Positions 13,032-38,571 are shown, numbered from the stretch's first letter. The stretch is 64,000 nt of DNA from an uncultured archaeon (GCA_964631205.1 CAZVWU010000005.1:19711-83710), one strand, 5' to 3'. A program made the numbers and translations. The notes: generated from the letters alone by a model not told the origin.

Positions 13032-13053
13032 CTGTTGCCATTCTTAAAATAAG

Positions 13054-15086: not shown

Positions 15087-15098
15087 CTTTATAAAGCC
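15087..15098 (+). promoter_or_regulatory. Palindromic TATA box GCTTTATAAAGC for 15119..16087 (leaderless)
   Basis: Same box and the same spacing to the start as the copy at 13020. The surrounding ~45 nt are duplicated. Confidence 0.55.
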
Positions 15099-15118
15099 CC
15101 TTTTCATTTTTTAATAAG

Positions 15119-16087: not shown

Positions 16088-16089
16088 TA

Positions 16090-23444: not shown

Positions 23445-23484
23445 ATTCCTTGAGCTAGAAAAGAAAGAATTATTTTGCATATTT

Positions 23485-23576
23485 TTCTAGTGCAGGTCTT
23501 TTGGCTTCAGCTGGAAATAGGTTTTTGACCGATTTGATTAGAAGACCTATTTCGTCCATTTAGCCAAAGAAGTGCA
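23485..23576. repeat. Intergenic element copy A (TTCTAGTGCAGGTC ... long central region ... AAAGAAGTGCA)
   Basis: Conserved termini shared with copies B-F. Inner pairing GTCTTTTGGC / GCCAAAGAAG. Lies between the stop of 23632..24117 and the start of the 706-aa gene. Confidence 0.7.
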
Positions 23577-23631
23577 CACTATATAATTATCAGTTTTCTC
23601 TTATAAGCATGGATCTATAACAGTGTTATAT

Positions 23632-24117
23632 CTATTTCTCATAGACAATAAAAACAATATCAATGTCTTGCCCTCTTTTGGAGATTTTCTGGTTCACTTT
23701 ATATATGCCAGTCTTGTTTTCCAGGGCCTTGCTGAGTGGCGTGACAGTGTCTCCATATTTAAAGTAGTAGTCCAACTTCGGATCAAGTGTTTTTTGTATA
23801 TAGACATCAGTCAGCGCATCCGCTATCTCCTCGCACCTTGCATCACCGCATCTCCAGCTCGGGGTTGTCTGCGAGCAATAAAGGACATCGGCCACAGTCT
23901 TGCATTTTTCTATATCCCCTGAATAACCGCTGTCTGTCTTTAGAAGCGCTGTCACCAAGCTGTTTGCATGCAGTTTTATGTAGTCTTCCCCCCTAAAAAT
24001 GTCAGCAGTAGAGATAAGCAAAGCAATAGTGCCTATGCTTACCACAATAACCAGAACCAGAGTTATCAGCATTGTCTGCCCGTTCAGGCCTTTTCTGTTT
24101 GAAATTTCCGTTTTCAT
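23632..24117 (-). CDS. Small pilin-like protein with a class III signal peptide
   Basis: MKTEISNRKGLNGQTMLITLVLVIVVSIGTIALLI. 161 aa. Confidence 0.7.
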   Translation of the reverse strand: MKTEISNRKGLNGQTMLITLVLVIVVSIGTIALLISTADIFRGEDYIKLHANSLVTALLKTDSGYSGDIEKCKTVADVLYCSQTTPSWRCGDARCEEIADALTDVYIQKTLDPKLDYYFKYGDTVTPLSKALENKTGIYKVNQKISKRGQDIDIVFIVYEK

Positions 24118-24135
24118 ATACTTCGTCTATTCACC

Positions 24136-24714
24136 TTAGGTTGGCACCCTGACTGTCATGAGGCCGAGATCGACCCTGTTTTCTATCGATCGGAATATAT
24201 TAACAGGTATTGATAAACCCCTGTTTTTTTTAGACTGTATGCTAAAGCAGATTTCTCTGCAGAATGTCCAGCTATTGCATCCTTTTTCCTGGCCAAAATT
24301 CAGCGGATCGCAATCGTTCTTTTCTTCGCCTAAAATAATTTTGTCAATTGTTACACATGCATCGCCGACAAGTTTTTTTATTTGCTCGCAGCCCTCCTTG
24401 TCATAAGGGCCTGTAAATGTGACTAGCTTTGAATCATCGAATATAAATTCCTCCTTTGTGAGAAAGCTTGCTTTGGCTACAAGGCTCGATGCTAACAGGA
24501 TTTTATGAATGTCCTCCTTGAAACTGGCTCCCTTGGATTTTGTTGACTCAAAACCAATAAAAAAGAAAAGCGCTGCTACAACAACCATCAGTATAAGGAC
24601 GGCCATCAGGAGATGCTCCATTATGCCGAACTGGCCCTTCAATTTTGAGGGAGGGGTGGGAACCGCAGGTTTCCACATGCCGAATTGTCCGCTTATTTTT
24701 TTTAAAAAAACCAT
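24136..24714 (-). CDS. Pilin-like protein with a class III-type signal
   Basis: ...PSKLKGQFGIMEHLLMAVLILMVVVAALFFFIGF. Internal N-terminal duplication KISGQFGMWKP / KLKGQFGIMEH. The start is uncertain. Confidence 0.6.
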   Translation of the reverse strand: MVFLKKISGQFGMWKPAVPTPPSKLKGQFGIMEHLLMAVLILMVVVAALFFFIGFESTKSKGASFKEDIHKILLASSLVAKASFLTKEEFIFDDSKLVTFTGPYDKEGCEQIKKLVGDACVTIDKIILGEEKNDCDPLNFGQEKGCNSWTFCREICFSIQSKKNRGLSIPVNIFRSIENRVDLGLMTVRVPT

Positions 24715-24786
24715 ACTTATATTTGGCTTTCCGTAAATATATTGTCCAATATTTGCAAAAGGCTTATAAAGCTTGGTGGCAATTTA

Positions 24787-25356
24787 ATGGATATGCTGAA
24801 AATAGGAGAAAAAGTTCCGGACTTTGAAACAGATGTATACCACAATGAACAGATTAGAAAAGTCAAGTCAGCAGACTTCAAAGGCAAATGGCTTGTCGTT
24901 ATGTTTTATCCAGCTGATTTCACTTTTGTATGTCCGACAGAGCTGGAGGAAGCTGCTTTGCTTTATGAGGAATTCAAGAAAGTCGGCGCAGAAATAATGA
25001 GCGTGAGCACAGATACAGGATATGTCCACAAGGCATGGCATGATGTCTCGCCTGCAATTAAAAAAATAAAATATCCCATGGCCGCAGACCCCACCGGAAA
25101 ATTGAGCAGGATGTTTGGGACCTACATGGAAGACACTGGCCTTGCGCTCAGGGGAACATTCATAATTGATCCGAATGGAGTTCTGAAAGCATATGAAATG
25201 CATGACCTGAGCATTGGAAGAAGCGCAGAAGAGACGCTGAGAAAATTGCAGGCTGCAAAATTTGTTGCTGAGAATGCAGGGCAGGTTTGCCCAGCTAACT
25301 GGAAGCCCGGGAAAAGCACATTGAAACCGGGATTGGATTTGGTGGGGAAGATATAG
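24787..25356 (+). CDS. Peroxiredoxin (typical 2-Cys Prx/AhpC family)
   Basis: Peroxidatic Cys in FTFVCPTE and resolving Cys in GQVCPANWKPG. Start moved to MDMLKIGEK, because the track's TTG start would include the TATA box. Confidence 0.9.
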   Translation: MDMLKIGEKVPDFETDVYHNEQIRKVKSADFKGKWLVVMFYPADFTFVCPTELEEAALLYEEFKKVGAEIMSVSTDTGYVHKAWHDVSPAIKKIKYPMAADPTGKLSRMFGTYMEDTGLALRGTFIIDPNGVLKAYEMHDLSIGRSAEETLRKLQAAKFVAENAGQVCPANWKPGKSTLKPGLDLVGKI

Positions 25357-25385
25357 AAAATTCTTTTTAGGGCAAAGAAGGAAAA

Positions 25386-25979
25386 GTGATTTATATGCAA
25401 TTCGAACCGAAAAATTTTGAGAGTTTGTTGGGTACTGCGGGATTTTCAGACATTCTTCTAAAAAACCATTTCACACTTTACCAAGGATATGTGACGAATA
25501 CGAACAAGCTGGCTGATGACTTAGCTGCTTCATTGAAAGCTGGCTGGGCAGGAACCCCCGGATATTCTGAACTGAAAAGGAGGTTTGGCTGGGAGTTTAA
25601 TGGGATGAGGTTGCATGAGCTGTATTTTGGGAATATGGTTAAGGGAGGCTCGCCTGTTGATAAAAATTCCCATCTGTTCAAAAAAATCGTGGAAGATTTC
25701 GGCTCATGGGAAAACTGGGAAAAAGATTTCAAGTCAACAGGTTCGATGCGCGGGATTGGGTGGACAATACTTTATTTTGACAAAAATTCCAACAGATTAT
25801 TCAATGTATGGGTGAATGAGCATGACTTTGGGCATCTTGCAGGATGCGTTCCGTTGCTGGTTCTTGATGTTTTCGAGCACGCATATATGATTGATTATGG
25901 ATTGAAAAAAGCGGATTATATTGAGGCTTTCTTTAAGGCGATTGATTGGAAGGCTGTGTCTGAAAGATTTAATTTGTAA
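25386..25979 (+). CDS. sod: Fe/Mn superoxide dismutase family protein
   Basis: C-terminal D-x-F-E-H-A-Y (LDVFEHAYMIDYG) and an N-terminal H...YVTNTNKL block match the Fe/Mn SOD fold. Some canonical His positions look diverged. Confidence 0.75.
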   Translation: MIYMQFEPKNFESLLGTAGFSDILLKNHFTLYQGYVTNTNKLADDLAASLKAGWAGTPGYSELKRRFGWEFNGMRLHELYFGNMVKGGSPVDKNSHLFKKIVEDFGSWENWEKDFKSTGSMRGIGWTILYFDKNSNRLFNVWVNEHDFGHLAGCVPLLVLDVFEHAYMIDYGLKKADYIEAFFKAIDWKAVSERFNL

Positions 25980-25980
25980 A

Positions 25981-27459
25981 TTATTTTATATCGAGATTTT
26001 CGAGTTTATTTTTCTCAAAATCGAAAATCCTCACAAGGTGGTTGTTTGTGTCTGTAATATATAATTTTCCGTCCAGATATTTGACATCAGAAGGTTCCCA
26101 CAATCCAAGCACCTTGCACTCTTCATCACCAATCATGCAAACATTTGCCTCGATTTTTTTGATTACTGTGGAAACTTCCATTTTTTCCAAATCTATTTTC
26201 CTAATTGCATTATTGTAAGTGTCAGCAACATACAAAACGTTTTTGCCGCCTGCGCAAATCCCCAAAGGATGCTGGAAGAGAGCTTGTTTTGCAGGCCCGT
26301 CTTTGAATCCAAACTCAAACAGGCCCTTTCCGCTGACTGTTGAAACAAAATTATTTTTAATGTCTATTTTCCTTATCCCAGAAACTTCGCTGTCCGCCAT
26401 AAAAATATTTCCATCTAAAACAGCCAGGCCGGAAGGCTGCGCGAAAGAGGAATCTGATAACGTCCCGTCAATAATATCTTCCCTGCCGTCCCCTGCAAAA
26501 GGCCTGATAAAATCCGATTTTGGGTCAAAGACCCAGAGCTGGTGGGCTCCGGCCATTGCAATATAAATCATCCCATTCCTTCCAGCCAAATCCCATGGAG
26601 AGGATAAATCTGTCTCCTCCCCTTTTCCGCCAGCAGATCCCCAATAAGCTTGTTTGCCTGTCCCAGCAACAGTTTTTACTTTTTTATTTTTTAAATCTAT
26701 TAACCGGATGCAGTGGTTTTCTGTGTCTGCGACAAATATTTTATTTTCAAGGAATAATACTCCCTGCGGCCTGTTAAATTCCGCGTCTGAAAAATTTCCG
26801 TCTTTCATTCCCTTTTTTCCTGAGCCTGCTTCTTCAACAACTTTGCCTTTCAGGTCAACAACCAGAATTTTATTCCTGTTTGAATTGCTTAAGGCAAAAT
26901 ATTTTTTGCCAGGGGAAAACGAAAGTTTGCCTGGATAAGAAAGGGTTGGCTTATTTTTATTTTCCGGGATTTTTATTTCGATCTTCTTTTTTGCCAAAAT
27001 ATTTTTTTGGTCCTCCAGAATTGTGTCCACAAGCTCTATAATTTCATCCCTGTGGCCTTCGCCTGATGTTTTGAATATAATGTTTCCTTTTGTGTCAATT
27101 ACTGCTAAAGTCGGCCAGCCAGTAGCTTGATATTCATTCCACATTCTCATTTCTTTGTCCACAATTACCGGGTGTTTTATCTCATAACGAAGAATTGCCT
27201 GCCATATATTTTTTGGGTCAGCTTCCTGCTCAAATTTTGCAGAATGGACACCTATCACAACCACAGGCTGTTTTTTGTATTTTTCCTCGATATGCTCGAG
27301 ATCAGGCAGAATGTGCATGCAGTTTATGCAGCAATATGTCCAGAAATCAAGAATTATAACATGGCCTTTTAATTTCTCTAAAGACAGAGGTCTGTCTGTG
27401 TTTAGCCATCTGAAATTTTTTGGGAATTCCGGAGCTTTGGATATTTTATTCAGAAACAT
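25981..27459 (-). CDS. Thioredoxin-like (CxxC) domain fused to an NHL-repeat beta-propeller (NHLRC2-like)
   Basis: FWTYCCINCMH thioredoxin/TlpA-like motif. C-terminal repeated NHL blocks (LYVADTYNNAIRKIDL, IFMADSEVSGIRKIDI, LYITDTNNHLVRIFDF). Confidence 0.85.
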   Translation of the reverse strand: MFLNKISKAPEFPKNFRWLNTDRPLSLEKLKGHVIILDFWTYCCINCMHILPDLEHIEEKYKKQPVVVIGVHSAKFEQEADPKNIWQAILRYEIKHPVIVDKEMRMWNEYQATGWPTLAVIDTKGNIIFKTSGEGHRDEIIELVDTILEDQKNILAKKKIEIKIPENKNKPTLSYPGKLSFSPGKKYFALSNSNRNKILVVDLKGKVVEEAGSGKKGMKDGNFSDAEFNRPQGVLFLENKIFVADTENHCIRLIDLKNKKVKTVAGTGKQAYWGSAGGKGEETDLSSPWDLAGRNGMIYIAMAGAHQLWVFDPKSDFIRPFAGDGREDIIDGTLSDSSFAQPSGLAVLDGNIFMADSEVSGIRKIDIKNNFVSTVSGKGLFEFGFKDGPAKQALFQHPLGICAGGKNVLYVADTYNNAIRKIDLEKMEVSTVIKKIEANVCMIGDEECKVLGLWEPSDVKYLDGKLYITDTNNHLVRIFDFEKNKLENLDIK

Positions 27460-27477
27460 ATGTATATGTTTTCTTTT

Positions 27478-27520
27478 GGGTTATAAGGCTTTTCTTTTAC
27501 AAAAGAAAAGGGTATAAATT
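27478..27520 (-). promoter_or_regulatory. Promoter module of the thioredoxin-NHL gene: TATA-like boxes flanking a 10-bp inverted repeat (CTTTTCTTTT-ac-AAAAGAAAAG)
   Basis: Minus-strand reading TTTATACCC-hairpin-CCTTATAACCCAAAAGAAAAC, then about 8 nt, then ATG. The same architecture recurs at 29995..30030 upstream of the pilin-like gene 29404..29970. Confidence 0.5.
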
Positions 27521-27587
27521 CAGCCATTCAAAATCCTCCGGGAACTCTGGAGCTTTTTTTAATTTTTCAAAAAATCCAGACATAGAA

Positions 27588-28688
27588 TTATTCACAACCT
27601 TTGGTTTTCAATTCAGAATAAATGCCGCTGACTTCATCCATCAGACCCAAAAATTTTTCCATTTCAGCTGGATTGTTATAGTTCTGCAAATCTATGACTG
27701 AAGAGATGAAAGTCTTGAACTCCCCGCCCATTTTTTGCTTGAGTTTATTATAAAGCGGCGTGCAGTCTTGTTTTTTGAGCTCTGGATCTGAAAAAGCGTC
27801 TGCTAGAACCTGCGCTCTCCTAGCTTCTTGTTTTGCAAAAGAAAGAAGGTTTTCAAACATCATTTTATTTTTAAATTTATAATGGTCTACACCACCGACA
27901 AGGACAGCTAACACATCCAATGGGTCCTTGTAAACTAGCCTGTACTCTGCAGATCTGCCTTCCCTGTCTGACGATTTAAACAATATCGCCCCGATTCTTC
28001 CTTGGGCAGGCGTCCTCAGCACAATCCCATTCTCCGGTATTGGGAGGTCTGCAGGCGAGATTATGATTTTAGTTTTTGGCGGCTGGAATTCGGCAGTGCA
28101 AAAGCTTAGCTTTAAATCTTGGGGGGATTTTGTCCTTACGATTCCTTTGATTGGCCTTATAAAATCGTCCCTGCTTTTGCTCACAAGCTCTGAATCCCCA
28201 TTGCAAAAGCCAAAGGAGACAACAGGGTCAATTGATTGCGGGAATAATTCTGTTATATTGTTGATTATTGAGTAATGTTCTAGTGAGTAGTCTGTGATCC
28301 CATAAAATATCTTTGTTTCAGGAAGGGCTCCCACGAAATCCTGCTTCCAGAAGCCATAGCTTAAAGACCCTTTGTAAACAGAAAGTTTTTCTCCCGGCTT
28401 GAAGAAAAACAGTATGGAAGGGTTCACTGAAACGCCGGCACCTTCTGAAATAAAGGGCGGCGGAGCCAGAAGAGGCGGCTTTTTTAGCCTGATTTCTGCA
28501 GGAACATTATAGATGTATGTATCCTCTATTAGATTTTTCAAGTTTTTATATTCTTGAACCTCAGCTGATTTTGTTTCAGTGACAGAGTATACCCCTGCAA
28601 ATTGCAGCATGAAATAAAGGAAAAATGAGGCGATTATCAAACCCAAGATTATTTTGAATGCCTCAAAAACGCTCAACGCCATAAGCAT
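27588..28688 (-). CDS. Membrane-anchored hypothetical protein (pilus-locus accessory?)
   Basis: N-terminal TM MLMALSVFEAFKIILGLIIASFFLYFML. No recognisable domain. Confidence 0.55.
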   Translation of the reverse strand: MLMALSVFEAFKIILGLIIASFFLYFMLQFAGVYSVTETKSAEVQEYKNLKNLIEDTYIYNVPAEIRLKKPPLLAPPPFISEGAGVSVNPSILFFFKPGEKLSVYKGSLSYGFWKQDFVGALPETKIFYGITDYSLEHYSIINNITELFPQSIDPVVSFGFCNGDSELVSKSRDDFIRPIKGIVRTKSPQDLKLSFCTAEFQPPKTKIIISPADLPIPENGIVLRTPAQGRIGAILFKSSDREGRSAEYRLVYKDPLDVLAVLVGGVDHYKFKNKMMFENLLSFAKQEARRAQVLADAFSDPELKKQDCTPLYNKLKQKMGGEFKTFISSVIDLQNYNNPAEMEKFLGLMDEVSGIYSELKTKGCE

Positions 28689-28736
28689 CACTGGTCTCCT
28701 ATAGGGGCTTTACTTCCACATAGCCGCCTTTGTTTG

Positions 28737-28770
28737 CACTTCTTTTCTGAAGAAAAGACCTGCACTAGAA
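28737..28770. repeat. Intergenic element copy B (inverted orientation), flanked by 31-bp direct repeats at 28704..28736 and 28772..28802
   Basis: GCACTTCTTTTCTGAAGAAAAGACCTGCACTAGAA. Central palindrome CTTTTC-TGAA-GAAAAG. Contains the stop (CTA) of 28765..29244. Flanking repeat GGCTTTACTTCCACATAGCCGCCTTTGTTTG occurs twice. Confidence 0.7.
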
Positions 28771-29244
28771 AGGCTTTACTTCCACATAGCCGCCTTTGTT
28801 TGTCAGTAAAAGATTGTATGTTGAGGTTATGCAGAAATTGGCTTCTGGTTTCATCTTTTCTATAGCGACCCCCTTTATTCCTTTATCCCGTCTGAGGTAA
28901 ATGAGAGAATATTTGTTTGCCTTTATCAAATCCTGGTAATCATACTCGTCTATCCAGCCTTTTGCCGGGTTATCCCTAGGATCTTCTGGATCTAAAAAGC
29001 AGGCCCTTTCCACATTATAGCCTAAAAAGAAATTGAATGTCTCCTTAGAGCCTGTTGTTGACCAGAAGATGCCTGTCTTCTTTTCCTTGCTGTAAACAGC
29101 CAATTCAAATTCCTTTGCTTGCCTGTCCAGCTGCACTTCTTCCCCAAGGCCGAAAAATCTCATTATGAGTGTAATTCCCCCTGTCAGGAGAAACCCAACT
29201 ACTATTATGACAAAAATAAATACAAACACCAAAGATATGTCCAT
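28765..29244 (-). CDS. Membrane-anchored hypothetical protein
   Basis: N-terminal TM MDISLVFVFIFVIIVVGFLL. 159 aa. The stop codon lies inside intergenic element copy B. Confidence 0.55.
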   Translation of the reverse strand: MDISLVFVFIFVIIVVGFLLTGGITLIMRFFGLGEEVQLDRQAKEFELAVYSKEKKTGIFWSTTGSKETFNFFLGYNVERACFLDPEDPRDNPAKGWIDEYDYQDLIKANKYSLIYLRRDKGIKGVAIEKMKPEANFCITSTYNLLLTNKGGYVEVKPF

Positions 29245-29359
29245 CTTTATAATTGTTTATTCAAGTTAAAATATACTGTCAAGACTAGAAAAGAAGAATT
29301 GCTTTGCATCTTGGAAGATTGACAGAAAGAAAAAGTGCAAAGAAGTGCAATCATCGGTT

Positions 29360-29406
29360 TTCTAGTGCAGGTCTTTTTGACCAATTGAACAGGGAAAGAA
29401 GTGCTA
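29360..29406. repeat. Intergenic element copy C
   Basis: TTCTAGTGCAGGTCTTTTTGACC...GGGAAAGAAGTGCTA. The stop codon of 29404..29970 lies in the terminal GTGCTA. Extra AAGTGCAA half-sites lie just upstream (29325-29350). Confidence 0.65.
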
Positions 29407-29970
29407 CTCTATGTTTAAAACAAAGATTTTGCTGCAGTCTTCTGGGAAGGATGTTGCTGTTGCGTTCACACGCTCGCATGTCGCGGAATCCTTGACCAGA
29501 CTGCTTTTGCCTGACTTGAACTCAAACTGGAACTTCCCTATGTCTGTATCTGGGGGAACTTTCATAACTATTGGTATATCTCTGATGTCCCCAGCCCTTA
29601 TCCAAATTGTCTGCACATAATCAAACCATGCTATAGCTTGTGTTAGAGGCCTTTGCCCGACTGCCCTAAAACTAAGTTTATAACAAGCGTCACCGGGCCC
29701 TTTATTGTTTATCAATATTTTAAACTGGTTTTCAGCGTCCCTTTTAGCTGAGGCTTCATCCCCTGTTGTCAGGACACAGCTTTTAGTCGGGTCTTTTTTA
29801 AGTGTGTCTGAGAGGTCTTGTATAGCTTGCTCAGTGACCTGGATCCCTATTGTATTGATATTTTTGAACAGGTTTCGTATAAATCCTGTTCCTAAAGTTA
29901 AAATTAGCACAGCTATCACAATGATTATCACAAATTCAATTCCGATGTTTATGCCTTTTTTTTGAGCCAT
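29404..29970 (-). CDS. Pilin-like protein (class III-type signal)
   Basis: MAQKKGINIGIEFVIIIVIAVLILTLG. The stop codon lies inside intergenic element copy C. Confidence 0.6.
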   Translation of the reverse strand: MAQKKGINIGIEFVIIIVIAVLILTLGTGFIRNLFKNINTIGIQVTEQAIQDLSDTLKKDPTKSCVLTTGDEASAKRDAENQFKILINNKGPGDACYKLSFRAVGQRPLTQAIAWFDYVQTIWIRAGDIRDIPIVMKVPPDTDIGKFQFEFKSGKSSLVKDSATCERVNATATSFPEDCSKIFVLNIE

Positions 29971-30092
29971 ATTATTGGTAACTGTTTTCTTTTGGTTATA
30001 CCTTTTCTTTTGGGAAAAAGAAAGGGTATATGTTTATGCCTTTTTTTTGAGCCATATTATTGGTAACTGTTTTCTTTTGGTTATACCTTTTC
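29945..30092. repeat. Tandem duplication (two ~62-nt copies, 85-nt period) of the 5' end, promoter and first 9 codons of pilin-like gene 29404..29970
   Basis: ATGTTTATGCCTTTTTTTTGAGCCATATTATTGGTAACTGTTTTCTTTTGGTTATACCTTTTC occurs at 29945..30006 and 30030..30092. The second copy would encode a truncated MAQKKGINIYPFFFPKEKV*. Confidence 0.7.
29991..30030 (-). promoter_or_regulatory. Promoter module of pilin-like gene 29404..29970, with the same architecture as 27478..27520
   Basis: Minus strand: TATACCC-(CCTTTTCTTTT...AAAAAGAAAGGG imperfect IR)-GGTATAACCAAAAGAAAAC, about 17 nt before the ATG. Confidence 0.45.
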
Positions 30093-30240
30093 GACTCAGG
30101 CGGACATAGGTCTTTATACAATTACCTAGACCTTTTTCGTCCCTCTAATGGGTAATAATTAGCTCAGGTTGTTTATATATAATTTATTATACGAGATGCC
30201 GAATTATCAAAACTGTGATAAAACACAATGCAGTATAAAA

Positions 30241-33200
30241 TCAACGCCCTTTACCCCTGCCTTTGGCTTTTATTTTTTTCGCTGGTTCTTTTGGTTCCTT
30301 TTTATCTAGTGGAGCTTTTACAGTAATATAATCTTTTAGGTCTGCCAGTTCTGTGCTTACAGGCGCCTCTTTTTCTGCCTTAACATCCACTTTCGGCCTT
30401 CTCGAATAGAAGAAGATTATTATAATGATTATTATTATCCCGAGCATGATGCCTATCTGGGAAGAGTATGCTGTAATTAGGCCTGTCGCTGGAGTTGTTG
30501 GTTGGGTTGTCTGGTTTGCAGTAGGCGCTGGTGTTGGAGGTTGAGGTGACGCCGTTGGGGGTGTTGCCTCTTCAGCAGGCTTTGGTTTTGTTGTTGCGAC
30601 AAATACAGAAAATCCCGGAGTTGTGACGACAAATTCCGCTGAGCCGCCTGTTTTCAAAGCCCATTTTGGATCAGGCAGCTGATTCCATGTTTTATTTGAA
30701 AATCTAAGGAATATTATCTCTGATGGTGGCGAATTTAACATCTCATCTTTTCTCATTGTTATTGTGAAATTTGCTTGTGATATCTTGCCTCTCAGGTTTT
30801 CTGAAGCTATTAGCTGAAACACCTTTAAAGCTTTCTGGCCTGCTCCAGGAAGAGGCTTTAATCCTTGGCCATAATCGTCTGCTATCGGCATCCCTTTCAG
30901 CGCTCTCATCTCTACATAGGCTGCTACTGAACTGACCACTTCATCTGTTTCTAAAATGATTTTGCTTATTCCTGCTTTTTCTGATATTTCCTGGGAGATT
31001 ATCAGCTCTATCGGTGTATATGGCAAGAAATCCCTGGGGTAGGTTAGTAATTGTGAAGCTATGACATTTAATTCAGATGCCGAAATTACATAAGATACGC
31101 CACCGACTCCACCACCGTCTCCACTTCCACCGCCTCCTCCACTAGAGGATCCACCACCAGCTGCAGAGGCTACTGTTATTGTTATTGTAGCTGTTGTGCT
31201 GTTGCTCAAGCCGAAAATATCAATTGCAGTGTAAGTTACAACAAATGTTCCGGTGGAGGTGTAGGTTTTTACTGGGTTTGCGGCTGTGGATGTTGTTCCA
31301 TCGCCAAAGTTCCATAAGTGTGAAATCCTGTCTCCAAGGACGCCAGGTATATTCGGGTCTGTTGCGGCGCTTGTAAATGTTATTTCTTGCCCAATGGTTG
31401 CTGAGTTTGTTGAAACAGTAAATCTTGCAACTGGCGGGAAATTCACCAAAGAAGCCAAGTTGCCTTGCCCGCTTGCAGAGGCATTGTATATAGTCCCATT
31501 TGACAATGCCAGCGTGCCATTAAATATTATATTGTTTGTAATATTTGCGCTATTTACAACTGTGTTCACCAGCGTCGAATTTATAACTGTGCTTCTTGTT
31601 ATTGTAACGTTTGTTAAGATATTTGCCAGGTTAAGGCTGCTATTTGTTATTGTGCAATTTGTCAGCGTGCTGCCGATTGCATTGCTGTCTGCTAAGGAGC
31701 AGAGATTAAGCGTGCTTGCAGCGACTGTCCCATTAATCAGGATCCCGGCTATCAGGAAGGAATTGTTGAGGGATGAATTTGTTAAGGTAGAGTTTGTGAT
31801 TGTTGAACTTGTCACGCTTGAGCTTGCGAGTGTTGAGTTAGTTACTGAGCTGGCTGTGACATTTGAAGACGTGCTCGTGCTGAATGTGACATTTGAGTTT
31901 ATAACTGAGCCGCCGCTGATTGAGCTTCCTGTTATATTGCTTGGGTCAACAACAGTATTAACAAAGGAGCAGGGAGAGGTTGCTGTTGTATCAGATATAT
32001 TGCTGTTCACAATATTGCATCCGTTAAGGACGCTGTTCCTGATAGAACTTAACCTCCCTGTGACGCTATTAAGGGTGCTTGAATTCACAGTTGAGTTTGT
32101 CATCACACTTGAGGCTATGCTGTTTGTGCCAATCAAGGTTGTGAAGTCGAGTATGTTCACGAGATTGTAAACAAGGTCTGTATTGGCCGTTGAGTTTTCG
32201 CCTGTGCATGCAAGGCTAACATTTTTAAAACCAAAAGGAGTTGTTAGCAGACCTATCTGTGCGCTGTGGACTGTTGTGCCTGCTCCCTGAAAACTGTTTG
32301 CCATGGAGTTGAAATCTGTATCTGAGAAAGACCATCTGCATGTATCGGTTACTGATGTGTTAAAGGTTAGAGTGAAGAAGCTTGTTTGTACAGTTGACCT
32401 GTTTGCCGGGTTAAAGCTGCTTTTTACTGAAGGCCCACCGCCCCCTCCCCCTCCACTAGCTGTAACTGCTATCCCTATCGCTGCTGAAGTGGTTGAAGCC
32501 CCCAAATTGTCTGTTGCAACTGTTGTAAGCGAGTATGTGCCTGCTGCCAGATTATTGACTGCCTGTGAGAATGGGGCTGTTGTGTCCTCGCCGAGTTTTG
32601 TTGCGCCCTGGAAGAATTCAACTTTGGCAACTGTCCCATCAGGATCAGTTGCTGTGGCCTCTATTGTGAATGTTGCAGGGGCTGTGAATGTTGCTCCTGC
32701 TGCTGGGTTGGTTATGCTGGCTGTTGGAGGCTGGTTCCTGTTATCAACAGCAAAGCTGTTTGTCGCCACAGCTGTCCCTGCTGTTGTATCAGATGGGGTT
32801 ATCCTTATCCTGACCTGATTATTAACTGCTGATGCCGCAACGCCGTCTGCCACTGAGTTCCAGACAAATGTGTGCGCTATACCTGTAGGCGAAGTTGTCA
32901 GGCCTGTTACGCCATCCCCGCCTGTTCCTCTAGTTGCTGCACTAAAGGTTGCCCCATTGTCTGCTGAGAGCTGGACATTAACTGAAGCTGTGTTGCTTTC
33001 TGGGTCTATTAGGTTATAGCTGATTGTTATGTTGCCTCTCTGGGTTCCTGCAGGCGTGGTTATTGTTGCTGAAGGCGGTGTGTTGGCTTGCGCGCCGCCT
33101 GTTGGTGTTGCTGACACTTCAATTGAGTTGAAGATCGACCCTTCTCCTGCTAGATTAACTGCAGTGACTTTATAGAATACCTTCTGGCCGTTTGCAAGGC

Positions 33201-34362
33201 CTGTGTCCTGGAATGTCAGGACATTTCCAACTGTTGTTACCAGAGCCTTGTTAGTTGAAGTTGTGCCCCTGTATATTTTATAGTTTGTTACCGTGGCTCC
33301 GCCGTTGTTTGCAGGAGCCTGCCATGTGAGTGTTACCTGACCATTACCAGCCTGGACTGCCAGGTTCTGGGGTGCAGATGGGAGCCGGATCAGGACAGGA
33401 ACTGGGAGTGTTGGCAATGTGGCTATTTCGAATGTTACGGTTGAGAAAAATGATTTAGCTGTGATTGTATATCCGCGGCTTAAAAGGTCTATTGTCTGGC
33501 CTTGGTTTATAAATTGGTTTGCAAGCTGGTTGCTATTTGAATCGGTAACAAGCACTTGCACGCCCCCCACTATTCCTGAGGTTAGCTGAAGCTTGTCATT
33601 CCCTGGCAATATAACTAAAGACCCTGGGGGTACTGTAAGCTCGGTTTTTGTTGTTGCGGGTGCAGGTGTTGCCGCTATTTCATTGCTTCTTGCACTTTCA
33701 CCCACAGAGTTTACAGCAGTGATTTCATAGAACACCTGCTGATTATTTGTGACGCCAATGTCTGCGAAAGTAAGGATGTTTCCTATTGTTGCTATCAAAA
33801 GCTTGTTTGCTGAAGCTGTGCCCCTATACACATTATAGTTAATTATTGCTGCTCCGCCATTGTCTGCAGGAGCCTGCCATGTGAGTGTTACCTGACCATT
33901 ACCAGCCTGGACTGCCAGGTTCTGGGGTGCAGATGGGGCTGAGACTTGGCCTGGGACAGAAACTTCAAGGGTTGCTTCTGACACCATGCTTAATCCAGGA
34001 AAGAGCTTAATTGCTGCTACTTTTATTGTCAAGGAGGTGCCGTCTATCAGGTTCACGGTTTTTGTTTCCCCCAAAAATATTATAGCAGGACTAGCTATGA
34101 CACCAGCTGGGCTGGAGACATAATGCAGGTATTGACCATTAAGGTTTCTTATGTCAAGCCATATTTGATTGGTAATTCCATCAATTGTTTGGAGCGATAG
34201 AAGATAATTCCCAAAAGTTGTGGATGTTGACCCGCCGACTGTCACTGTTGTTGGTGCTGACTGGGCAATAGCCATGCCCAAAAGCAAAATCAAAGCTGCA
34301 GAGAAATAGGCGGTCGCTCGCTTGGTATTCTTAAAATCTCTGCGCATTCTCCTTTCTTCCAT
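30241..34362 (-). CDS. Giant surface protein with tandem FN3, Ig-like, Asn/Ser/Thr-rich beta-helix-like and PKD domains, plus a C-terminal 'PGF'-containing anchor module
   Basis: Signal peptide. Two near-identical FN3 units (PSAPQNLAVQAGNGQVTLTWQAPA...). PKD motif WNFGDGT. Many N-x-S/T sequons. C-terminal TTPGFSVFVATT, a Thr/Pro linker, TM IMLGIIIIIIIIFFY and RRPK. Confidence 0.85.
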   Translation of the reverse strand: MEERRMRRDFKNTKRATAYFSAALILLLGMAIAQSAPTTVTVGGSTSTTFGNYLLSLQTIDGITNQIWLDIRNLNGQYLHYVSSPAGVIASPAIIFLGETKTVNLIDGTSLTIKVAAIKLFPGLSMVSEATLEVSVPGQVSAPSAPQNLAVQAGNGQVTLTWQAPADNGGAAIINYNVYRGTASANKLLIATIGNILTFADIGVTNNQQVFYEITAVNSVGESARSNEIAATPAPATTKTELTVPPGSLVILPGNDKLQLTSGIVGGVQVLVTDSNSNQLANQFINQGQTIDLLSRGYTITAKSFFSTVTFEIATLPTLPVPVLIRLPSAPQNLAVQAGNGQVTLTWQAPANNGGATVTNYKIYRGTTSTNKALVTTVGNVLTFQDTGLANGQKVFYKVTAVNLAGEGSIFNSIEVSATPTGGAQANTPPSATITTPAGTQRGNITISYNLIDPESNTASVNVQLSADNGATFSAATRGTGGDGVTGLTTSPTGIAHTFVWNSVADGVAASAVNNQVRIRITPSDTTAGTAVATNSFAVDNRNQPPTASITNPAAGATFTAPATFTIEATATDPDGTVAKVEFFQGATKLGEDTTAPFSQAVNNLAAGTYSLTTVATDNLGASTTSAAIGIAVTASGGGGGGGPSVKSSFNPANRSTVQTSFFTLTFNTSVTDTCRWSFSDTDFNSMANSFQGAGTTVHSAQIGLLTTPFGFKNVSLACTGENSTANTDLVYNLVNILDFTTLIGTNSIASSVMTNSTVNSSTLNSVTGRLSSIRNSVLNGCNIVNSNISDTTATSPCSFVNTVVDPSNITGSSISGGSVINSNVTFSTSTSSNVTASSVTNSTLASSSVTSSTITNSTLTNSSLNNSFLIAGILINGTVAASTLNLCSLADSNAIGSTLTNCTITNSSLNLANILTNVTITRSTVINSTLVNTVVNSANITNNIIFNGTLALSNGTIYNASASGQGNLASLVNFPPVARFTVSTNSATIGQEITFTSAATDPNIPGVLGDRISHLWNFGDGTTSTAANPVKTYTSTGTFVVTYTAIDIFGLSNSTTATITITVASAAGGGSSSGGGGGSGDGGGVGGVSYVISASELNVIASQLLTYPRDFLPYTPIELIISQEISEKAGISKIILETDEVVSSVAAYVEMRALKGMPIADDYGQGLKPLPGAGQKALKVFQLIASENLRGKISQANFTITMRKDEMLNSPPSEIIFLRFSNKTWNQLPDPKWALKTGGSAEFVVTTPGFSVFVATTKPKPAEEATPPTASPQPPTPAPTANQTTQPTTPATGLITAYSSQIGIMLGIIIIIIIIFFYSRRPKVDVKAEKEAPVSTELADLKDYITVKAPLDKKEPKEPAKKIKAKGRGKGR
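33090..33936 (-). repeat. Two near-identical FN3-domain coding repeats inside the 1373-aa gene (about 33090..33381 and 33650..33936)
   Basis: At least 72 nt identical (coding PSAPQNLAVQAGNGQVTLTWQAPA). The flanks are diverged. Confidence 0.75.
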
Positions 34363-34477
34363 AAAAAGTCTATTGGCTCTCCCACTCCGAATTTAATAAT
34401 AGTTATAAGTTTTATAAACTGATTGGTAAGCAGGGCAAGTTTTATAAAGCTATCCTGCTTTTCGGTATTTTGGTTTT

Positions 34478-34535
34478 TTCTAGTGCAGGGCACCTTTTTA
34501 CGAAAAAGTTGCACCAAAAATGGAAAGAAGTGCTA
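34478..34535. repeat. Intergenic element copy D
   Basis: TTCTAGTGCAGGGCACCTTTTTACGAAAAAG...GGAAAGAAGTGCTA. Central CTTTTT-ACG-AAAAAG hairpin. The stop of the hef helicase gene lies in the terminal GTGCTA. Confidence 0.7.
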
Positions 34536-36197
34536 TTTCGAAGGAATTTGTGGATTTAGGCTTTTCTGCTGCATCCCATAAAGGATCCATTTCATCTTTT
34601 TCTCTTTGTTTAGAGATGACCAGTGGTAAGCCTCGTCCCTTGTGCCTTTTGTTATCAGGACAATGATTTTGCCGATTTTGGACCTGCCAACACGGCCTCT
34701 CCTCTGTATGCTTCTTATTTCGGATGGCGCAGGTTCGTAAAAGATCGCGATGTCGGCATCAGCCACATGCAGGCCTTCCTCCCCGATTGAAGTGCAGACT
34801 AATACATTGTAAACCCCTGACTTAAAATCCTCGAGCCGCTGGATCTGCTCTTTTTGGGTGAGGCCTTTTTTTACTTCTTGGATTGGTTTATCCTGAGGTT
34901 GCATATCTACTGCTTTTTGAAAATCAGTATTTAGTTTTTTATTTTCTTCTTTTTGATTAACGTTTTTCTTGAAACGGTTATTTACTTGCTTATTTTCAGA
35001 TCCCCTTTTCCCTTGGCCGATAAATTCGACAGGCCTTGAGCCCTCTATTTTTCCCAATGCCGATGCTATGTGGCTTACAGTGTCCCTGTATGTGGCGAAG
35101 ACTATTATTTTTGAGCCCTTTCTCTGGTTTACCTCTGCAGATACTATACTGCAGAGCTTGCTCATTTTTGGGTGCTTGTAGCCTTCCTCGAAAAGGCTGT
35201 TTGTCAGCCACATTGCATTTGAAATTGTTTTGTCTTTTACAAGGGCTATCGAATACCTTGATTTGTCTTCCCTTACTTTTTTCCAATAGTTTTCTAAAAT
35301 GGGGATTCCCTGGGTCTCTAGAAGGCCGATCGCATGCTCTATTTTTATTGCAGGCAGGGCAAGTGAGAGCCCTATGAAGGCGTCCCTGTTCCCTGCTTTT
35401 ATTTTTGCCATCAGGTTGCTTTGCAGAAGAAGCAGGTCTTTTTTTGTTGGATTTTTTCTTTTTAAAAGCCACATTTTCCTGAGGGTTTCTATCCTTTGGT
35501 AATAGGCAGACTTTAGAAGAGTCCTTATTCTGTCAAAATTTTCTGGAAGCTCAACACTGACCCATCCTATTTCCTTTTCGTTTATGTAGGGCTTGACATC
35601 CTCATCTTCTTCTGTCCGTATCTCGATTGCATCAAGGCCTGTATTTTTGCAGATTTCTTCTATCTTCCCTTTATCTGCGCCGGGGGAAGCTGTTAACCCC
35701 AGTATTTTTGGGTTTTTTGCTTGCGCCAGATAGGTTTTTGCAATAAATGGATAGGCATAATCGCCAATTGCATGGTGGACTTCATCCAAAACCAGCAGGC
35801 TGAATTCCTTCAAGTTGAGCCTGTTTTCCTCAAGATCATTTTTAATTGTTTGCGGGGTTGCGAAGACCAGTTTTTTGTTTTTGTAGATTTCTTCCCTTTT
35901 CTCTGGGCTTATTACTCCTGTTATAACTACAAAAAGGGTCTCGTCAATATTTAGGAAATTTAAAAAAGATTTATAATGCTGGTTTACAAGGGGCCTTGTA
36001 GGCGCCATTATTAATATTTTGGAGCTCTGGTTTTCATTCAGCCTGTGGGCTGCTAATAAGGCCGCTATGGGCGTTTTACCTAAACCAGTTGGAAGCACGC
36101 ACAGAATATTTTTATTCAAGGCAGAAGCTAAAACCGATTGCTGATAGGCTCTTGATTCGATTGAGTCTGGCTTGATTAAGGGATGCGAGACGTACAT
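34533..36197 (-). CDS. hef: Hef/FANCM-type DEAH-box helicase (helicase part only)
   Basis: Q-motif/Walker A (LPTGLGKT), DEVHH, and C-terminal LVCTSIGEEGLHV...FYEPAPSEIRSIQRRGRVGR, typical of archaeal Hef helicase. A K/N/Q-rich low-complexity insert lies between motifs IV and V. No nuclease domain is present. Confidence 0.85.
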   Translation of the reverse strand: MYVSHPLIKPDSIESRAYQQSVLASALNKNILCVLPTGLGKTPIAALLAAHRLNENQSSKILIMAPTRPLVNQHYKSFLNFLNIDETLFVVITGVISPEKREEIYKNKKLVFATPQTIKNDLEENRLNLKEFSLLVLDEVHHAIGDYAYPFIAKTYLAQAKNPKILGLTASPGADKGKIEEICKNTGLDAIEIRTEEDEDVKPYINEKEIGWVSVELPENFDRIRTLLKSAYYQRIETLRKMWLLKRKNPTKKDLLLLQSNLMAKIKAGNRDAFIGLSLALPAIKIEHAIGLLETQGIPILENYWKKVREDKSRYSIALVKDKTISNAMWLTNSLFEEGYKHPKMSKLCSIVSAEVNQRKGSKIIVFATYRDTVSHIASALGKIEGSRPVEFIGQGKRGSENKQVNNRFKKNVNQKEENKKLNTDFQKAVDMQPQDKPIQEVKKGLTQKEQIQRLEDFKSGVYNVLVCTSIGEEGLHVADADIAIFYEPAPSEIRSIQRRGRVGRSKIGKIIVLITKGTRDEAYHWSSLNKEKKMKWILYGMQQKSLNPQIPSK

Positions 36198-36287
36198 ATC
36201 GCTTAAGAATTAGCATATAGGAGTTTAAATTAAAAGTAGGAAATTAAAAACAAATTTTGGGGGTTCGGCCCTTTCCTAAAGGGCTGA

Positions 36288-36324
36288 TTCTAGTGCAGGT
36301 TTTTGCCGTGGCAAAAAAGTGCTA
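36288..36324. repeat. Intergenic element copy E
   Basis: TTCTAGTGCAGGTTTTTGCC-GTG-GCAAAAAAGTGCTA. The stop of 36322..38313 lies in the terminal GTGCTA. Preceded by hairpin GCCCTTT-CCT-AAAGGGC at 36268..36284. Confidence 0.7.
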
Positions 36325-38313
36325 GTGTTTCCTTTTGATCAAAACAAATACAACTATTACCACAATAACTATCACTGCGATTATTCCAAGCAATAGTGTG
36401 TTTGAACCTGCTGCTGGAGTTGTTGGGGCTGTTGTTGCTGCTGGAGTTGTTGTGCCTGCCGGGGCTCCTGTGGTTGGTGGAGTTGTTGTTGTCTGTGGTT
36501 GTTCGGCTGCTGCTACTGCCTCTTTCTTTGTCACAACAAATATTGAGAATCCTGGGGTTGTAGCCTTGAATTTGCCTCCGCCAAGGGATTGTGTTGAGAG
36601 TTCATTCCATTTCCCGTCTGCAAACCTTGCTAGCACAACATCTGCGGCTTTCAAGTTGTTTGTTGAGAGCTCTGCATCTGTGAGGCTAAATTCTATTGTT
36701 GCCTGCTTTACTGCAGCAGAAAGGACTGTTGAAGGCGTGACCTGGATGACTTTCACTATAGGCTGTGCTGCTGATGGCAAGGCTGTCAATGCTTGGCCTT
36801 TGTCGTCTGAAATTGGTATTTTATCAAGAGCTCTGATCTCCACTGTCGCATCGGCTACTGAGACATCTTTTGTGACTTCAACCTGTATCTTTTCGACAGA
36901 AGATTTTGATGCTACATCTGCTGGGACAGCCAGTTCAACAGGGGCTGCTGTAGTCAAAGGTGCTGTGACTGTGAGGGTTGTTGAGGCCAGGACTGTGGAG
37001 GTTGATGAAGGCGTTGACTGTGAAGTGGATGAAGTGCCTCCAGTGCTGCTAGTCAATTCGGCATATTTGATTTTGAATGTGGCTGTTTTTGTTACAGAAT
37101 TGCCTGCCCTGTCTGTTTTTGTGAATGTCGCTTTGTATTCGCCTACATCTGATGTGTCTGTGAAGTCATTCCCGCAGTTGTGGGTTACTTTGGTTCCTGT
37201 TGGCTTCTCTATTGAGATTGACTGGTCAGCTGAATCAAGGCCTGATGTGACGTCTGATGATGAGCATGTAAGGTCATCTTTGGATATGGTATTGCCTTTA
37301 TTGGTATCGGTGCTTGGCACTGTTAGGGTTGCTGAAGGGGATGTTGCGTCGTTTGTGATTGTGTATGTTGAGGCGTTCGCCACCTGGTTATTCGAGACAT
37401 CTGTGGCAAATACTGTGAAGTTGTGGATACCATCAGGCATACCTCCAAGAGAGAGTGTTGCAGTGGAGCTTGAGCCTCCGCTCGCTATTGTCATGCTTGC
37501 GTTGGATATTGTCTTGTTGTTGCCGAACCCTATGGAGAGGTTTACAGAGACTGGGTTTGTCTCGTTGAAATCGACTTTAAAGTCATTTGTTGTGTTGGTT
37601 GTGTTGGTGTTGTTGGCCCTTGTGCCGCCTGTATACCTTACAGCATTAGGCGCGATTGTGTCGTTTACATAGAAAGTGACATTTGTCTGGTTTATAACGC
37701 CGCTCCCGCCGCCATCATCTATCAATGTGACTGTCATGTTCAATGAGTTGTTTGTAGGTATTGTCCTGCCGCCTGGAACCTTTAACCTCACAGCTATGTA
37801 TATTGTGCCTGAAGTGTTAACAAGTGGAGGTACGCCCCATGCGCCTGCTGAAGAATTGACTCTTGTTGTATTGAACCATGTAAGGTTGACTAGCTGGCCG
37901 ACTGTTACATTAGTGAAGCCTATTCCGTTAAATGAACCTGCTGTGCCTTGTGCTGATGCGCTTGCATTTTTCAGAGTCTCTGATGAGAAATTACCTAGGA
38001 ATTCAAAACCCGGAGGCAGTGTTATGTTTATCTGTGTGATATTCCTGACATTGCTTGCCACATCAGTGCCTAAAACTTTTATAGAGAGGTTTAAAGTTAC
38101 GTTGTCGCCGCCGGATTCGAGGAATGTGACGTTTCTCCCTGAATCAGCAATGGTAAAAGTCTGGAACCCCGTTGTGTTTATGCCTGAAACAACGAACTGG
38201 TTGCCTTCTTTGGCAGCGCTGATATAATTGACAAAAAGAGATAGGCTTACTAATAGTACTAATGCAGAGAGTAAAATCAAAACAGGTTTTGTGGCTCCTT
38301 TTAAATTATTCAT
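36322..38313 (-). CDS. Heavily N-glycosylation-sequon-rich surface protein (S-layer/glycocalyx candidate) with the 'PGF' anchor module
   Basis: Signal peptide and dozens of N-x-T/S sites. The C-terminal domain is homologous to the C-terminus of 30241..34362 (ARFADGKWNEL...TTPGFSIFVVT), followed by a T/P linker, TM LLLGIIAVIVIVVIVVFVLI and KRKH. Confidence 0.8.
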   Translation of the reverse strand: MNNLKGATKPVLILLSALVLLVSLSLFVNYISAAKEGNQFVVSGINTTGFQTFTIADSGRNVTFLESGGDNVTLNLSIKVLGTDVASNVRNITQINITLPPGFEFLGNFSSETLKNASASAQGTAGSFNGIGFTNVTVGQLVNLTWFNTTRVNSSAGAWGVPPLVNTSGTIYIAVRLKVPGGRTIPTNNSLNMTVTLIDDGGGSGVINQTNVTFYVNDTIAPNAVRYTGGTRANNTNTTNTTNDFKVDFNETNPVSVNLSIGFGNNKTISNASMTIASGGSSSTATLSLGGMPDGIHNFTVFATDVSNNQVANASTYTITNDATSPSATLTVPSTDTNKGNTISKDDLTCSSSDVTSGLDSADQSISIEKPTGTKVTHNCGNDFTDTSDVGEYKATFTKTDRAGNSVTKTATFKIKYAELTSSTGGTSSTSQSTPSSTSTVLASTTLTVTAPLTTAAPVELAVPADVASKSSVEKIQVEVTKDVSVADATVEIRALDKIPISDDKGQALTALPSAAQPIVKVIQVTPSTVLSAAVKQATIEFSLTDAELSTNNLKAADVVLARFADGKWNELSTQSLGGGKFKATTPGFSIFVVTKKEAVAAAEQPQTTTTPPTTGAPAGTTTPAATTAPTTPAAGSNTLLLGIIAVIVIVVIVVFVLIKRKH

Positions 38314-38532
38314 GGAAACCTCTATAGCACATTATATGTTTTGTTTCGAAGATATATAAACATTATTTTGGATGGACACCTATATAAGTATTTTTATTTC
38401 TTTGCCCAGGTTTGTCCCTTTTCTTGCATTAATTAAGATTATAGTTTGCTTGCTTATAAATTTAACCTGGGAGCTTATATGGCCTTAGTCATTTTTATAT
38501 TTTATTCATTCTTACGTTAATTACTTATTATT

Positions 38533-38571
38533 TTCTAGTGCAGGTCTTTTGCAAGAGCAAAAGAAGTGCTA
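38533..38571. repeat. Intergenic element copy F
   Basis: TTCTAGTGCAGGTCTTTTGC-AAGA-GCAAAAGAAGTGCTA. The stop of 38535..40841 lies in the left-end TTCTAG. Confidence 0.75.

Follow-up and report, generated by a model that had tools for sequence, protein, structure and literature searches.

A short covarying hairpin repeat at gene junctions and in tRNA introns of DPANN archaea, a probable non-autonomous mobile element

Six short intergenic repeats, here called copies A to F, lie within 15 kb of a 64,000-nucleotide stretch of DNA (the window) from an uncultured archaeon (GCA_964631205.1 CAZVWU010000005.1:19711-83710), while the other 49 kb carry no copies despite many gene ends. These repeats probably belong to a short, non-autonomous mobile hairpin—resembling repetitive extragenic palindromes (REPs) and miniature inverted-repeat transposable elements (MITEs)—that is widespread in DPANN archaea. 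The original prediction, made from the window by itself, had put forward three roles: a mobile MITE/REP-like element, a shared terminator in 3′ untranslated regions, or recombination sites for the shuffling of surface-protein genes. Among these, the mobile element is the best candidate in view of the target repeats that surround copy B and three copies elsewhere. The element is a defined unit with a compensated structure, sharp boundaries and a variable target duplication, it has been gained or lost between relatives, and it resides in spliced introns as well as at tight gene junctions. The family comprises more than 100 loci (designated by L numbers) from dozens of metagenome-assembled genomes (MAGs) of DPANN archaea and from metagenomes.

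Read in the sense of the genes of the window, the unit has the form GCAC-UUCUUU-(stem-loop)-AAAGA-CCUGCAC-UAGAAA. The inserted part comprises about 36–38 nt, GCA-CU-(UCUUUU(GC)-loop-(GC)AAAAGA)-CC-UGC-ACUAGAAA, and folds into a 3-bp outer stem (GCA/UGC), an invariant 2×2 internal loop, an inner stem of 7–13 bp and an invariant single-stranded tail. The top of the inner stem, whose general form is (U)CUUUU../..AAAAG(A), varies freely provided that pairing holds. Across the family, unit lengths range from 31 to 48 nt, and the element can be described as a short, imperfect, extragenic and repeated palindrome. Among 29 copies, 98.1% of the stem cells are paired, as compared to 41–59% in slid-register controls, and five stem pairs are changed on both sides (exemplified by one pair with U-A 19, G-C 7, C-G 2 and A-U 1, and another with G-C 13, C-G 10 and U-A 4); none of 500 shuffles reached the observed values. 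The outer stem covaries as well in variants such as ACA/UGU (L058) and CGA/UCG (L047). The conserved ends and the covarying stem that had been deduced from six copies are thus borne out, and the structure-preserving variation is also present in the larger sample. The compensatory variation is real, yet it does not identify the RNA strand. G-U and A-C pairs are both rare (5 and 6 of about 600), wobble being nearly absent on either strand, and the stem is therefore of the Watson–Crick type on both strands; the asymmetry between the two kinds of pair, 5 vs 6, gives no signal as to the strand of function. Readings as a C/D-box, H/ACA, K-turn or self-contained bulge–helix–bulge (BHB) motif were rejected on inspection, as neither boxes nor G·A pairs are present and the 2×2 loop is symmetric.

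Within the window, the 11-mer TCTAGTGCAGG is found six times as an exact match (0.8 expected by chance) and seven times if one mismatch is allowed (0.77 expected), a count of seven being reached by none of 100 shuffles. The right terminus, AAGAAGTGC, is at chance level by itself (23 matches vs 22 expected) and is informative solely in pairing with the left end; it had been described as common to all six copies, but its trailing TA occurs in four of them only (C–F). A covariance model termed R1, trained on the 29 copies and run over the 64 kb, recovers A–F at 25.6–63.9 bits, each matched at full length, and detects no further full copy. Model and 11-mer count together confirm the six predicted positions. 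The copies fold alike on the strand of the local genes with the exception of C, and the centres of D and A are enlarged. The palindromic centres proposed for F, B, E and A hold, whereas C is devoid of a self-paired centre and the hairpin of D is off-register. At the gathering threshold, Rfam gives no match in the whole window, and a permissive threshold around copy F yields only a chance microRNA match (E = 5.4).

Direct repeats bracket four copies and delimit what has been inserted: they measure 30 nt at copy B, 53 nt in L079 and 10–11 nt in L109 and L146. These repeats begin 0 nt before GCAC and 0–1 nt past CTAGAA, which defines the inserted unit as GCAC...CTAGAAA. By chance, an abutting 10-nt match is expected at about 1e-6 per copy. 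Copy B (28736..28771, plus strand; 59.3 bits) is the sole copy in the window whose GCAC-first strand—GCAC-first denoting the GCAC-to-CTAGAAA orientation—is the plus strand, and it is therefore inverted relative to the local genes. Its upstream 30-nt repeat, GGCTTTACTTCCACATAGCCGCCTTTGTTT (28706..28735), abuts the GCAC end with a gap of 0 nt, and the downstream repeat (28772..28801) begins right after CTAGAAA. The perfect 31-bp repeats reported earlier are perfect over 30–31 nt and extend to 38 nt at 92% identity, and their interpretation as an insertion footprint gains from the three further copies with the same geometry. The TAG stop codon of gene 28765-29244 falls within the CTAG of copy B. 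While the downstream repeat codes for the present C-terminus of this gene (..NKGGYVEVKPF, then stop), the upstream repeat, read on the minus strand, contains a former C-terminal coding sequence that is now redundant (..NKGGYVEVKPL, then stop). Homologues of the protein end in ..YVDVKPA as opposed to ..YVEVKPF in the window, and the conserved C-terminus has been retained by virtue of the 30-nt target duplication.

Comparisons between loci add to this picture. In a syntenic relative (L080), whose proteins are 60–81% identical and whose gene order is kept over 12 kb, there are zero copies. Since the closest relatives of the gene flanking copy B are merely 70–75% identical at the nucleotide level, only absence in synteny is demonstrable. 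In tRNA-Leu(UAA) genes with an identical 38-nt 5′ exon, the element is located in the intron in L037 and L056; the corresponding gene in L059 is intron-less and has the element directly past its 3′ end. The 37-mers of L043, L050 and L055, which come from three MAGs and from three different contexts, are identical, and the same variants recur at several loci within one MAG (WALN01). Tandem arrays, in which the element is repeated together with 16–18 nt, are found in L038, L071, L105 and L151.

The distribution of the family was established by pattern searches. A scan of one genome per species with TTCTAGTGCAGG N{8,38} AARAAGTGC, a pattern that fixes 21 nt, returned 44 loci, of which 40 are located in DPANN MAGs, mostly Micrarchaeota (other labels being Aenigmatarchaeota, Woesearchaeota, Iainarchaeum and Norongarragalinales). 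The TCTTT...AAAGA hairpin, which is not forced by the pattern, is present in all 40 DPANN loci and absent in all four bacterial matches. A scan of Joint Genome Institute (JGI) metagenomes contributed 66 additional loci. The 34 single matches obtained from viral contigs are all chance matches in coding sequence without the hairpin, and the Logan contigs matching the window are identical to it and provide little extra sequence. Text searches of the literature retrieved no paper containing the termini and none on such an element in DPANN archaea. Dense arrays of several hairpin types (e.g., GCAACTTCTTAAAAAGAAGTTGC) were observed at L078 1-200 and 7250-7562 and at L036, L039 and L066 (MAG WALN01). 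These WALN01/L078 arrays are punctuated by AAGTGC and GGTGCAGC, which suggests a wider superfamily with common GTGC punctuation.

Most copies of the family do not lie behind surface-protein genes. The restriction to a surface-protein and pilin array, as originally described, is true of the window alone, whereas tRNA genes are the dominant context in the family as a whole; no tRNA or rRNA gene was found in the 64 kb, and the link to tRNA introns was invisible from there because the window has no tRNA gene. In at least nine tRNA species, the element makes up the 5′ body of introns, which are located at canonical, D-loop or T-loop positions. GCAC-first copies begin 0–2 nt past the 5′ splice site, and 10–35 nt of intron then follow. 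Introns of this kind interrupt tRNA-Leu(UAA) (L037, L056, L143), tRNA-Thr(GGU) (L043), tRNA-Arg(UCU) (L065), tRNA-Gly(CCC) (L070) and, as read by eye, the tRNA-Ala(UGC) of a 16S–23S spacer (L058), while a tRNA-Leu intron in L054 holds two copies in tandem. A D-loop intron family of the form ..UAGCUCA/element/AGAnnUGAGCA/UUGG.. (L040, L045, L050, L097, L103, L114, L129, L141, L147) affects Phe, Thr, Ile and other tRNAs. T-loop introns are represented by L041 and L052, and intron copies in the opposite orientation by L064 and L079. Rfam tRNA matches span the element in L043 and L065, and a tRNA is obtained for 26 of 95 copies upon splicing in silico and rescanning. Removal thus restores an RNA, as is characteristic of a BHB intron, for copies in other genomes and not for the six copies of the window, where no tRNA or rRNA gene is interrupted. 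L037 contains a near-strict BHB (GCAGGA-CUUA-AG-GCACUU ... AAGUGU-UGAG-AUA-UCCUGU) with GCACUU as the h′ helix, a BHB-like fold exists in L070, and the other introns are relaxed. A relaxed BHB scan of the window copies gave 0–4 matches in gene sense with a scanner whose background rate is 75%.

Copies also flank tRNA and rRNA genes. At tRNA 3′ ends they are GCAC-first (L038, L046, L059, L067, L074), and at tRNA 5′ ends they have the other orientation (L042, L057, L048, L068, L071), in which, once more, it is the GCAC end that adjoins the tRNA. In rRNA operons, a 16S rRNA gene is interrupted by one variant, and a further copy precedes a 16S gene. The interrupted gene belongs to L058 (46-90 and 1030-1240): the variant, ACACUUUUUUGCC..GGCAAAAACCUGUACUAAAA, is enclosed by a complementary AACACUUU/AAAGUGU stem, and the spacer tRNA-Ala of this operon appears to carry several introns. 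Two further observations concern tRNA-Leu. In L056, the acceptor 3′ strand and trailer of tRNA-Leu(UAA), CCCCUGCA/CUAGAAA, equal the 3′ terminus of the element, and in L054 the sequence past the first intron copy equals that past the tRNA-Leu 3′ end. These identities hint that the terminus of the element may derive from, or recombine with, tRNA-Leu ends.

The intron copies raise the possibility of an archaeal counterpart of "introner" elements, i.e., a mobile hairpin—propagated at the DNA level or retro-copied—that carries a BHB intron-internal helix and founds new introns upon landing in tRNA genes. We regard this as a tentative proposal that falls short of being probable. A related scheme, in which a BHB intron spreads at the RNA level by reversed endonuclease/ligase chemistry or with the help of a reverse transcriptase, and in which extragenic copies are retro-copies of the 5′ part of the intron, is distinctly unlikely. 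It would account for an element whose start in tRNA introns is offset from the 5′ splice site by 0–2 nt (or by none once junction ambiguity is taken into account), for the sharp 5′ and the A-rich, fuzzy 3′ end, and for target duplications of variable length, which are typical of target-primed reverse transcription; moreover, intron "transposition" is known in Thermoproteales (PMC4090602, PMC3239211). However, neither the window nor the surroundings of copies revealed a reverse transcriptase, the extragenic copies do not include the 3′ extension of the intron, some intron copies are reversed (L064, L079), and the BHB matches of the window copies do not exceed the background rate of the scanner.

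Next to open reading frames (ORFs), both orientations are about equally frequent. One copy occupies the gap between rpoB and rpoA′ (L131). The S2 subfamily is placed between a GGAGG Shine-Dalgarno (SD) sequence and the ATG of uL24, uL10, fibrillarin, KaiC/RadB-like and HxlR genes, and its fold leaves AGAAGUGC(U) single-stranded as an 8–9-nt spacer ahead of the AUG. An intron in protein genes was rejected as an explanation, since the ORF fusions obtained after removal join adjacent genes, e.g., rpoB and rpoA′. A conserved C-terminal peptide or recoded stop codon was ruled out, most copies elsewhere being non-coding. These contexts render an intrinsic, possibly bidirectional, transcription terminator common to neighboring genes—the shared 3′-end signal among the original candidates—hardly tenable. 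A hairpin with T4–5/A4–5 arms does occur right after stop codons in the window and also follows tRNA 3′ ends elsewhere, but the element resides in the same orientation inside tRNA genes ahead of the 3′ exons, in the tRNA-Ala of the 16S–23S spacer, in the rpoB–rpoA′ gap and in SD–ATG gaps. Furthermore, no T-run follows the stem, a terminator scan flags none of the six window copies, and most gene ends of the window have no element.

The genes adjoining the window copies are all on the minus strand and encode LamG/immunoglobulin-type surface proteins, a DEAD/Hef-type helicase and small membrane proteins; the array is therefore not made up of surface-protein genes only, as had been assumed. Copy F (38532..38569, minus strand; 63.9 bits, folding z −5.05) is the consensus-like copy. 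ORF 38535-40841 runs into it and ends at the UAG of the element itself, so that the last 11 codons (TSFALAKDLH and stop) are element-encoded; on a reading of the sequence, taking the unit out would give back an end of the form ..LNNNNK followed by a stop codon. A stop codon within a terminal CTAG had been proposed for five of the six copies. This applies to F and B, where the left CTAG provides it, but not to C, D and E, in which the stop codon is located in the right terminus instead (TAG/CAC) and overlaps the first G of the element, nor to A, which contains no stop codon of a neighbor. The genes concerned are 29404-29970 at copy C (29359..29404, minus strand; 44 bits), the DEAD/Hef-type helicase gene 34533-36197 at copy D (34477..34533, minus strand; 25.6 bits) and 36322-38313 at copy E (36288..36322, minus strand; 52.2 bits). 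Copy E belongs to a subfamily with U-A replacing C-G at one stem pair (GCACUUUUUUGCC..GGCAAAAACCUGCAC), and the centre of copy C resembles the separate S2 subfamily. Copy A (23484..23575, minus strand; 41.6 bits), which reads GCAC...CCTGCACTAGAAA, is composite: the ends and the outer stem are the usual ones, and the loop holds an unrelated 55-nt hairpin, GAAATAGGT..ACCTATTTC. Copy A ends 4 nt ahead of the ATG of the pilin-like gene 21360-23480. Its 55-nt centre (23505-23560) is related to the intergenic sequence 30105-30150 and to GACATAGGTC..GACCTATGTC in the syntenic relative (L080 6540-6590), and appears to represent a third small hairpin family, nested within the first.

Copy C bears on the recombination sites of the original prediction. 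It is located where three genes of L080 (1158-6000) are missing, which encode surface-protein-like products of 613, 433 and 464 aa and lie between genes for 188-aa and 159-aa proteins. The gap at 29244-29404 of the window relative to L080 coincides exactly with copy C and two fragments consisting of the GCAC-end terminus only (GCACTTCTTT and GCACTTTTT; 29330..29348, minus strand), situated downstream of C in gene sense. The position of copy C at this three-gene indel would suit an attC-like recombination site that marks mobile cassettes for the shuffling of surface-protein genes, as would the imperfect palindrome, the conserved unpaired bases and the location at the ends of same-strand genes. 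Nevertheless, such a role is very improbable. The R″/R′ cores (RYYYAAC/GTTRRRY) are missing, the ends being TTCTAGTGCAGG and AARAAGTGC in all copies, and no Pfam recombinase match, hence no integrase, was obtained among the window ORFs that were scanned. The flanked genes include that of a housekeeping helicase and reach 1373 aa, and most copies elsewhere are off cassette boundaries, occurring in tRNA introns, SD–ATG gaps and essential operons.

The host of the window is an archaeon; genes for a RadB-type Rad51 homologue, the wyosine enzyme Taw1, RNase P p30, a Hef-type nuclease and helicase and a diphthamide synthase are present. Other repeats were noted in the window. A tandem duplication of about 2 kb (13000-16150; 71–90% identical) spans the paralogous genes 13054-14043 and 15119-16087 with their flanks. 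A second element of 55 nt, TATATGTTTTCTTTTGGGTTATAAGGCTTTTCTTTTACAAAAGAAAAGGGTATAA, is 100% identical between the window (27463-27517) and two unrelated loci (L150 2242-2296, L050 1-49). This TATATGTTTTCTTTTGGGTTATAAGGCTTTTCTTTTACAAAAGAAAAGGGTATAA element consists of a hairpin between two TATA-like boxes directly upstream of a gene start and may be a mobile promoter module. In addition, a 22-nt insert, by which the palindrome TATACCTTTTCTTTTGGGAAAAAGAAAGGGTATA is completed, lies between the two units of a perfect 63-nt direct repeat (29945-30007 and 30030-30092); the start of gene 29404-29970 falls within this repeat. From its sequence, the insert looks like a diverged copy of the TATATGTTTTCTTTTGGGTTATAAGGCTTTTCTTTTACAAAAGAAAAGGGTATAA promoter/hairpin element, again with a long flanking duplication.

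Several observations weigh against a mobile element. No transposase, reverse transcriptase or integrase was found among the scanned ORFs of the window, and clustering of 607 ORFs from 40 loci revealed only ribosomal, RNA polymerase and aminoacyl-tRNA synthetase neighbors, none of the three enzyme types being recurrent. A target duplication is undetectable at most copies, the number of exact-pattern copies per genome is low (at most about seven), and to our knowledge a variable duplication of 10–53 nt matches no characterized cut-and-paste transposase. As the patterns fix 21 nt, conservation at those positions is in part imposed by the search; unforced positions and lower-scoring model matches show an identical architecture. 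Across dozens of MAGs and several DPANN lineages, neither the ends nor the internal loop varies; selfish DNA rarely behaves in this way, and a conserved host factor would be compatible with it, too. Some host-level function or strong filtering is also suggested by the placement of the copies, as the GCAC end meets functional units almost to the nucleotide and S2 is specialized for the SD–ATG gap of essential genes.

Such a function could be that of an RNA hairpin acting as a processing, stability or "punctuation" signal, or as a protein-binding site, which is kept at the boundaries of functional RNAs and recognized by a conserved archaeal factor. In one version, it would be cut by RNase P or RNase Z as a mimic of a tRNA minihelix, the stack comprising about 13 layers and the 3′ tail reading A-CUA. 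In agreement with this idea, the internal loop and tail are invariant in many MAGs, and the organism of the window encodes RNase P p30. Moreover, the GCAC end adjoins stop codons, 5′ exons and the 3′ ends of tRNAs in one orientation, and ATGs or tRNA 5′ ends in the other, and the fold of S2 leaves 8–9 nt single-stranded ahead of the AUG in genes for uL24, uL10 and fibrillarin. We nevertheless consider a host-function hairpin unlikely: the syntenic relative does without the element, the copies of the window cluster in 15 kb although gene ends are plentiful in the remainder, both orientations relative to ORFs occur, G-U pairs are not enriched on either strand, target duplications and tandem arrays exist, and Rfam contains no such family.

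The element enters DNA as an exact unit with a sharp GCAC boundary. The target becomes duplicated to a variable extent, the four clean cases measuring 10, 10, 30 and 53 nt, and repeated insertion or duplication gives rise to the tandem arrays. As to what drives a mobile hairpin of this kind, an enzyme acting in trans and encoded elsewhere may recognize the folded single strand by means of the invariant CU/CC loop and the ACUAGAAA tail, insertion proceeding via staggered breaks or via copying of an RNA or single-stranded intermediate. Copies would persist only where a compact hairpin is harmless, namely at gene junctions (between stop codon and element or between element and ATG) and in tRNA leaders and trailers. 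Within tRNA genes, the element would supply an intron-internal helix by the 5′ splice site and be removed by the tRNA splicing endonuclease, the GCA/UGC or GCACUU helix presumably serving as helix h′ beside the 5′ bulge, as in L037 and the similar fold of L070. In the window, all six copies entered junctions between genes of the minus strand; copies F and B came to lie inside ORF ends, where the stop codon is now provided by their CTAG.

In the way it works, the element comes closest to bacterial REPs and to the introns described as "transposed" in tRNA genes of Thermoproteales. With REPs, bacterial interspersed mosaic elements (BIMEs) and REPINs, which depend on REP-associated tyrosine transposases (RAYTs) of the Y1 HUH type, it shares an imperfect palindrome of 20–40 nt with a conserved stem mismatch, a conserved tetranucleotide "head" just outside the stem, an extragenic and non-coding location, often right after stop codons or in operons, and an occurrence as single copies, inverted pairs and clusters. 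In contrast to REPs, its head is CTAG at a distance of one nucleotide from the stem instead of GT(A/G)G (GTAG), its hosts are archaea, its copy number is far lower, and it is also found inside tRNA and rRNA genes. REP/IS200-type transposition makes no target duplications, whereas the element shows variable ones, and RAYT/TnpA is neither encoded by the scanned window ORFs nor recurrent near copies at the 40 loci. MITEs resemble it in being non-autonomous, in the terminal inverted similarity (GCA(CT)TCTTT vs GCA(GG)TCTTT), in the flanking direct repeats and in scattered as well as locally clustered copies. Typical MITEs are much longer, however, and their duplications have a fixed, family-specific length in place of 10, 10, 30 and 53 nt (with none at most copies); a parental insertion sequence with the same ends was not found, nor was a transposase beside any copy at the 40 loci. 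Integron attC sites likewise combine conserved ends, a variable palindromic centre and unpaired conserved bases with a position at the 3′ ends of same-strand genes, but unlike them the element is devoid of R″/R′ cores, is not accompanied by IntI or attI and is not limited to cassette arrays.

In Thermoproteales, near-identical "transposed" introns have been described for tRNAs of different kinds (Fujishima et al. 2010, summarized in PMC4090602 and PMC3239211), and the former review calls the mechanism unknown. Micrarchaeota possess a broad-specificity epsilon2 splicing endonuclease and many disrupted tRNA genes (PMC3239211), and a broad-specificity splicing endonuclease is what the two groups of organisms have in common. 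The DPANN case differs in that the module common to the copies is just about 36 nt long and occurs in several DPANN lineages, in that it extends beyond tRNA genes to mRNA junctions, tRNA flanks and rRNA operons, and in that it shows target duplications, which offer a handle on a DNA-level mechanism. The likeness to eukaryotic "introner" elements—transposon-derived introns (PMC11282704)—is one of logic only, a mobile element bringing part of the splice signal; here a BHB and a protein endonuclease would take the place of the spliceosome, and the creation of introns is our inference.

The family ties the cores of tRNA introns to ordinary intergenic insertions with clean, measurable footprints. 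If the introner proposal is true, it would account for the spreading of near-identical introns among archaeal tRNA species and positions, and extragenic copies with exact duplications, e.g., copy B, would constitute the first direct footprints of this spreading. In genome annotation, the element accounts for unusual C-terminal extensions and stop codons (as in the genes ending at 38535 and 28765) and for tRNA genes that tRNA finders overlook in these lineages. Its abundance in public DPANN metagenomes permits the study of presence and absence at the strain level. Finally, a tiny and highly conserved sequence of parasite-like character is present in essential operons of even the most reduced archaeal genomes, for instance at the rpoB/rpoA′ junction, in ribosomal-protein leaders and in the rRNA spacer.

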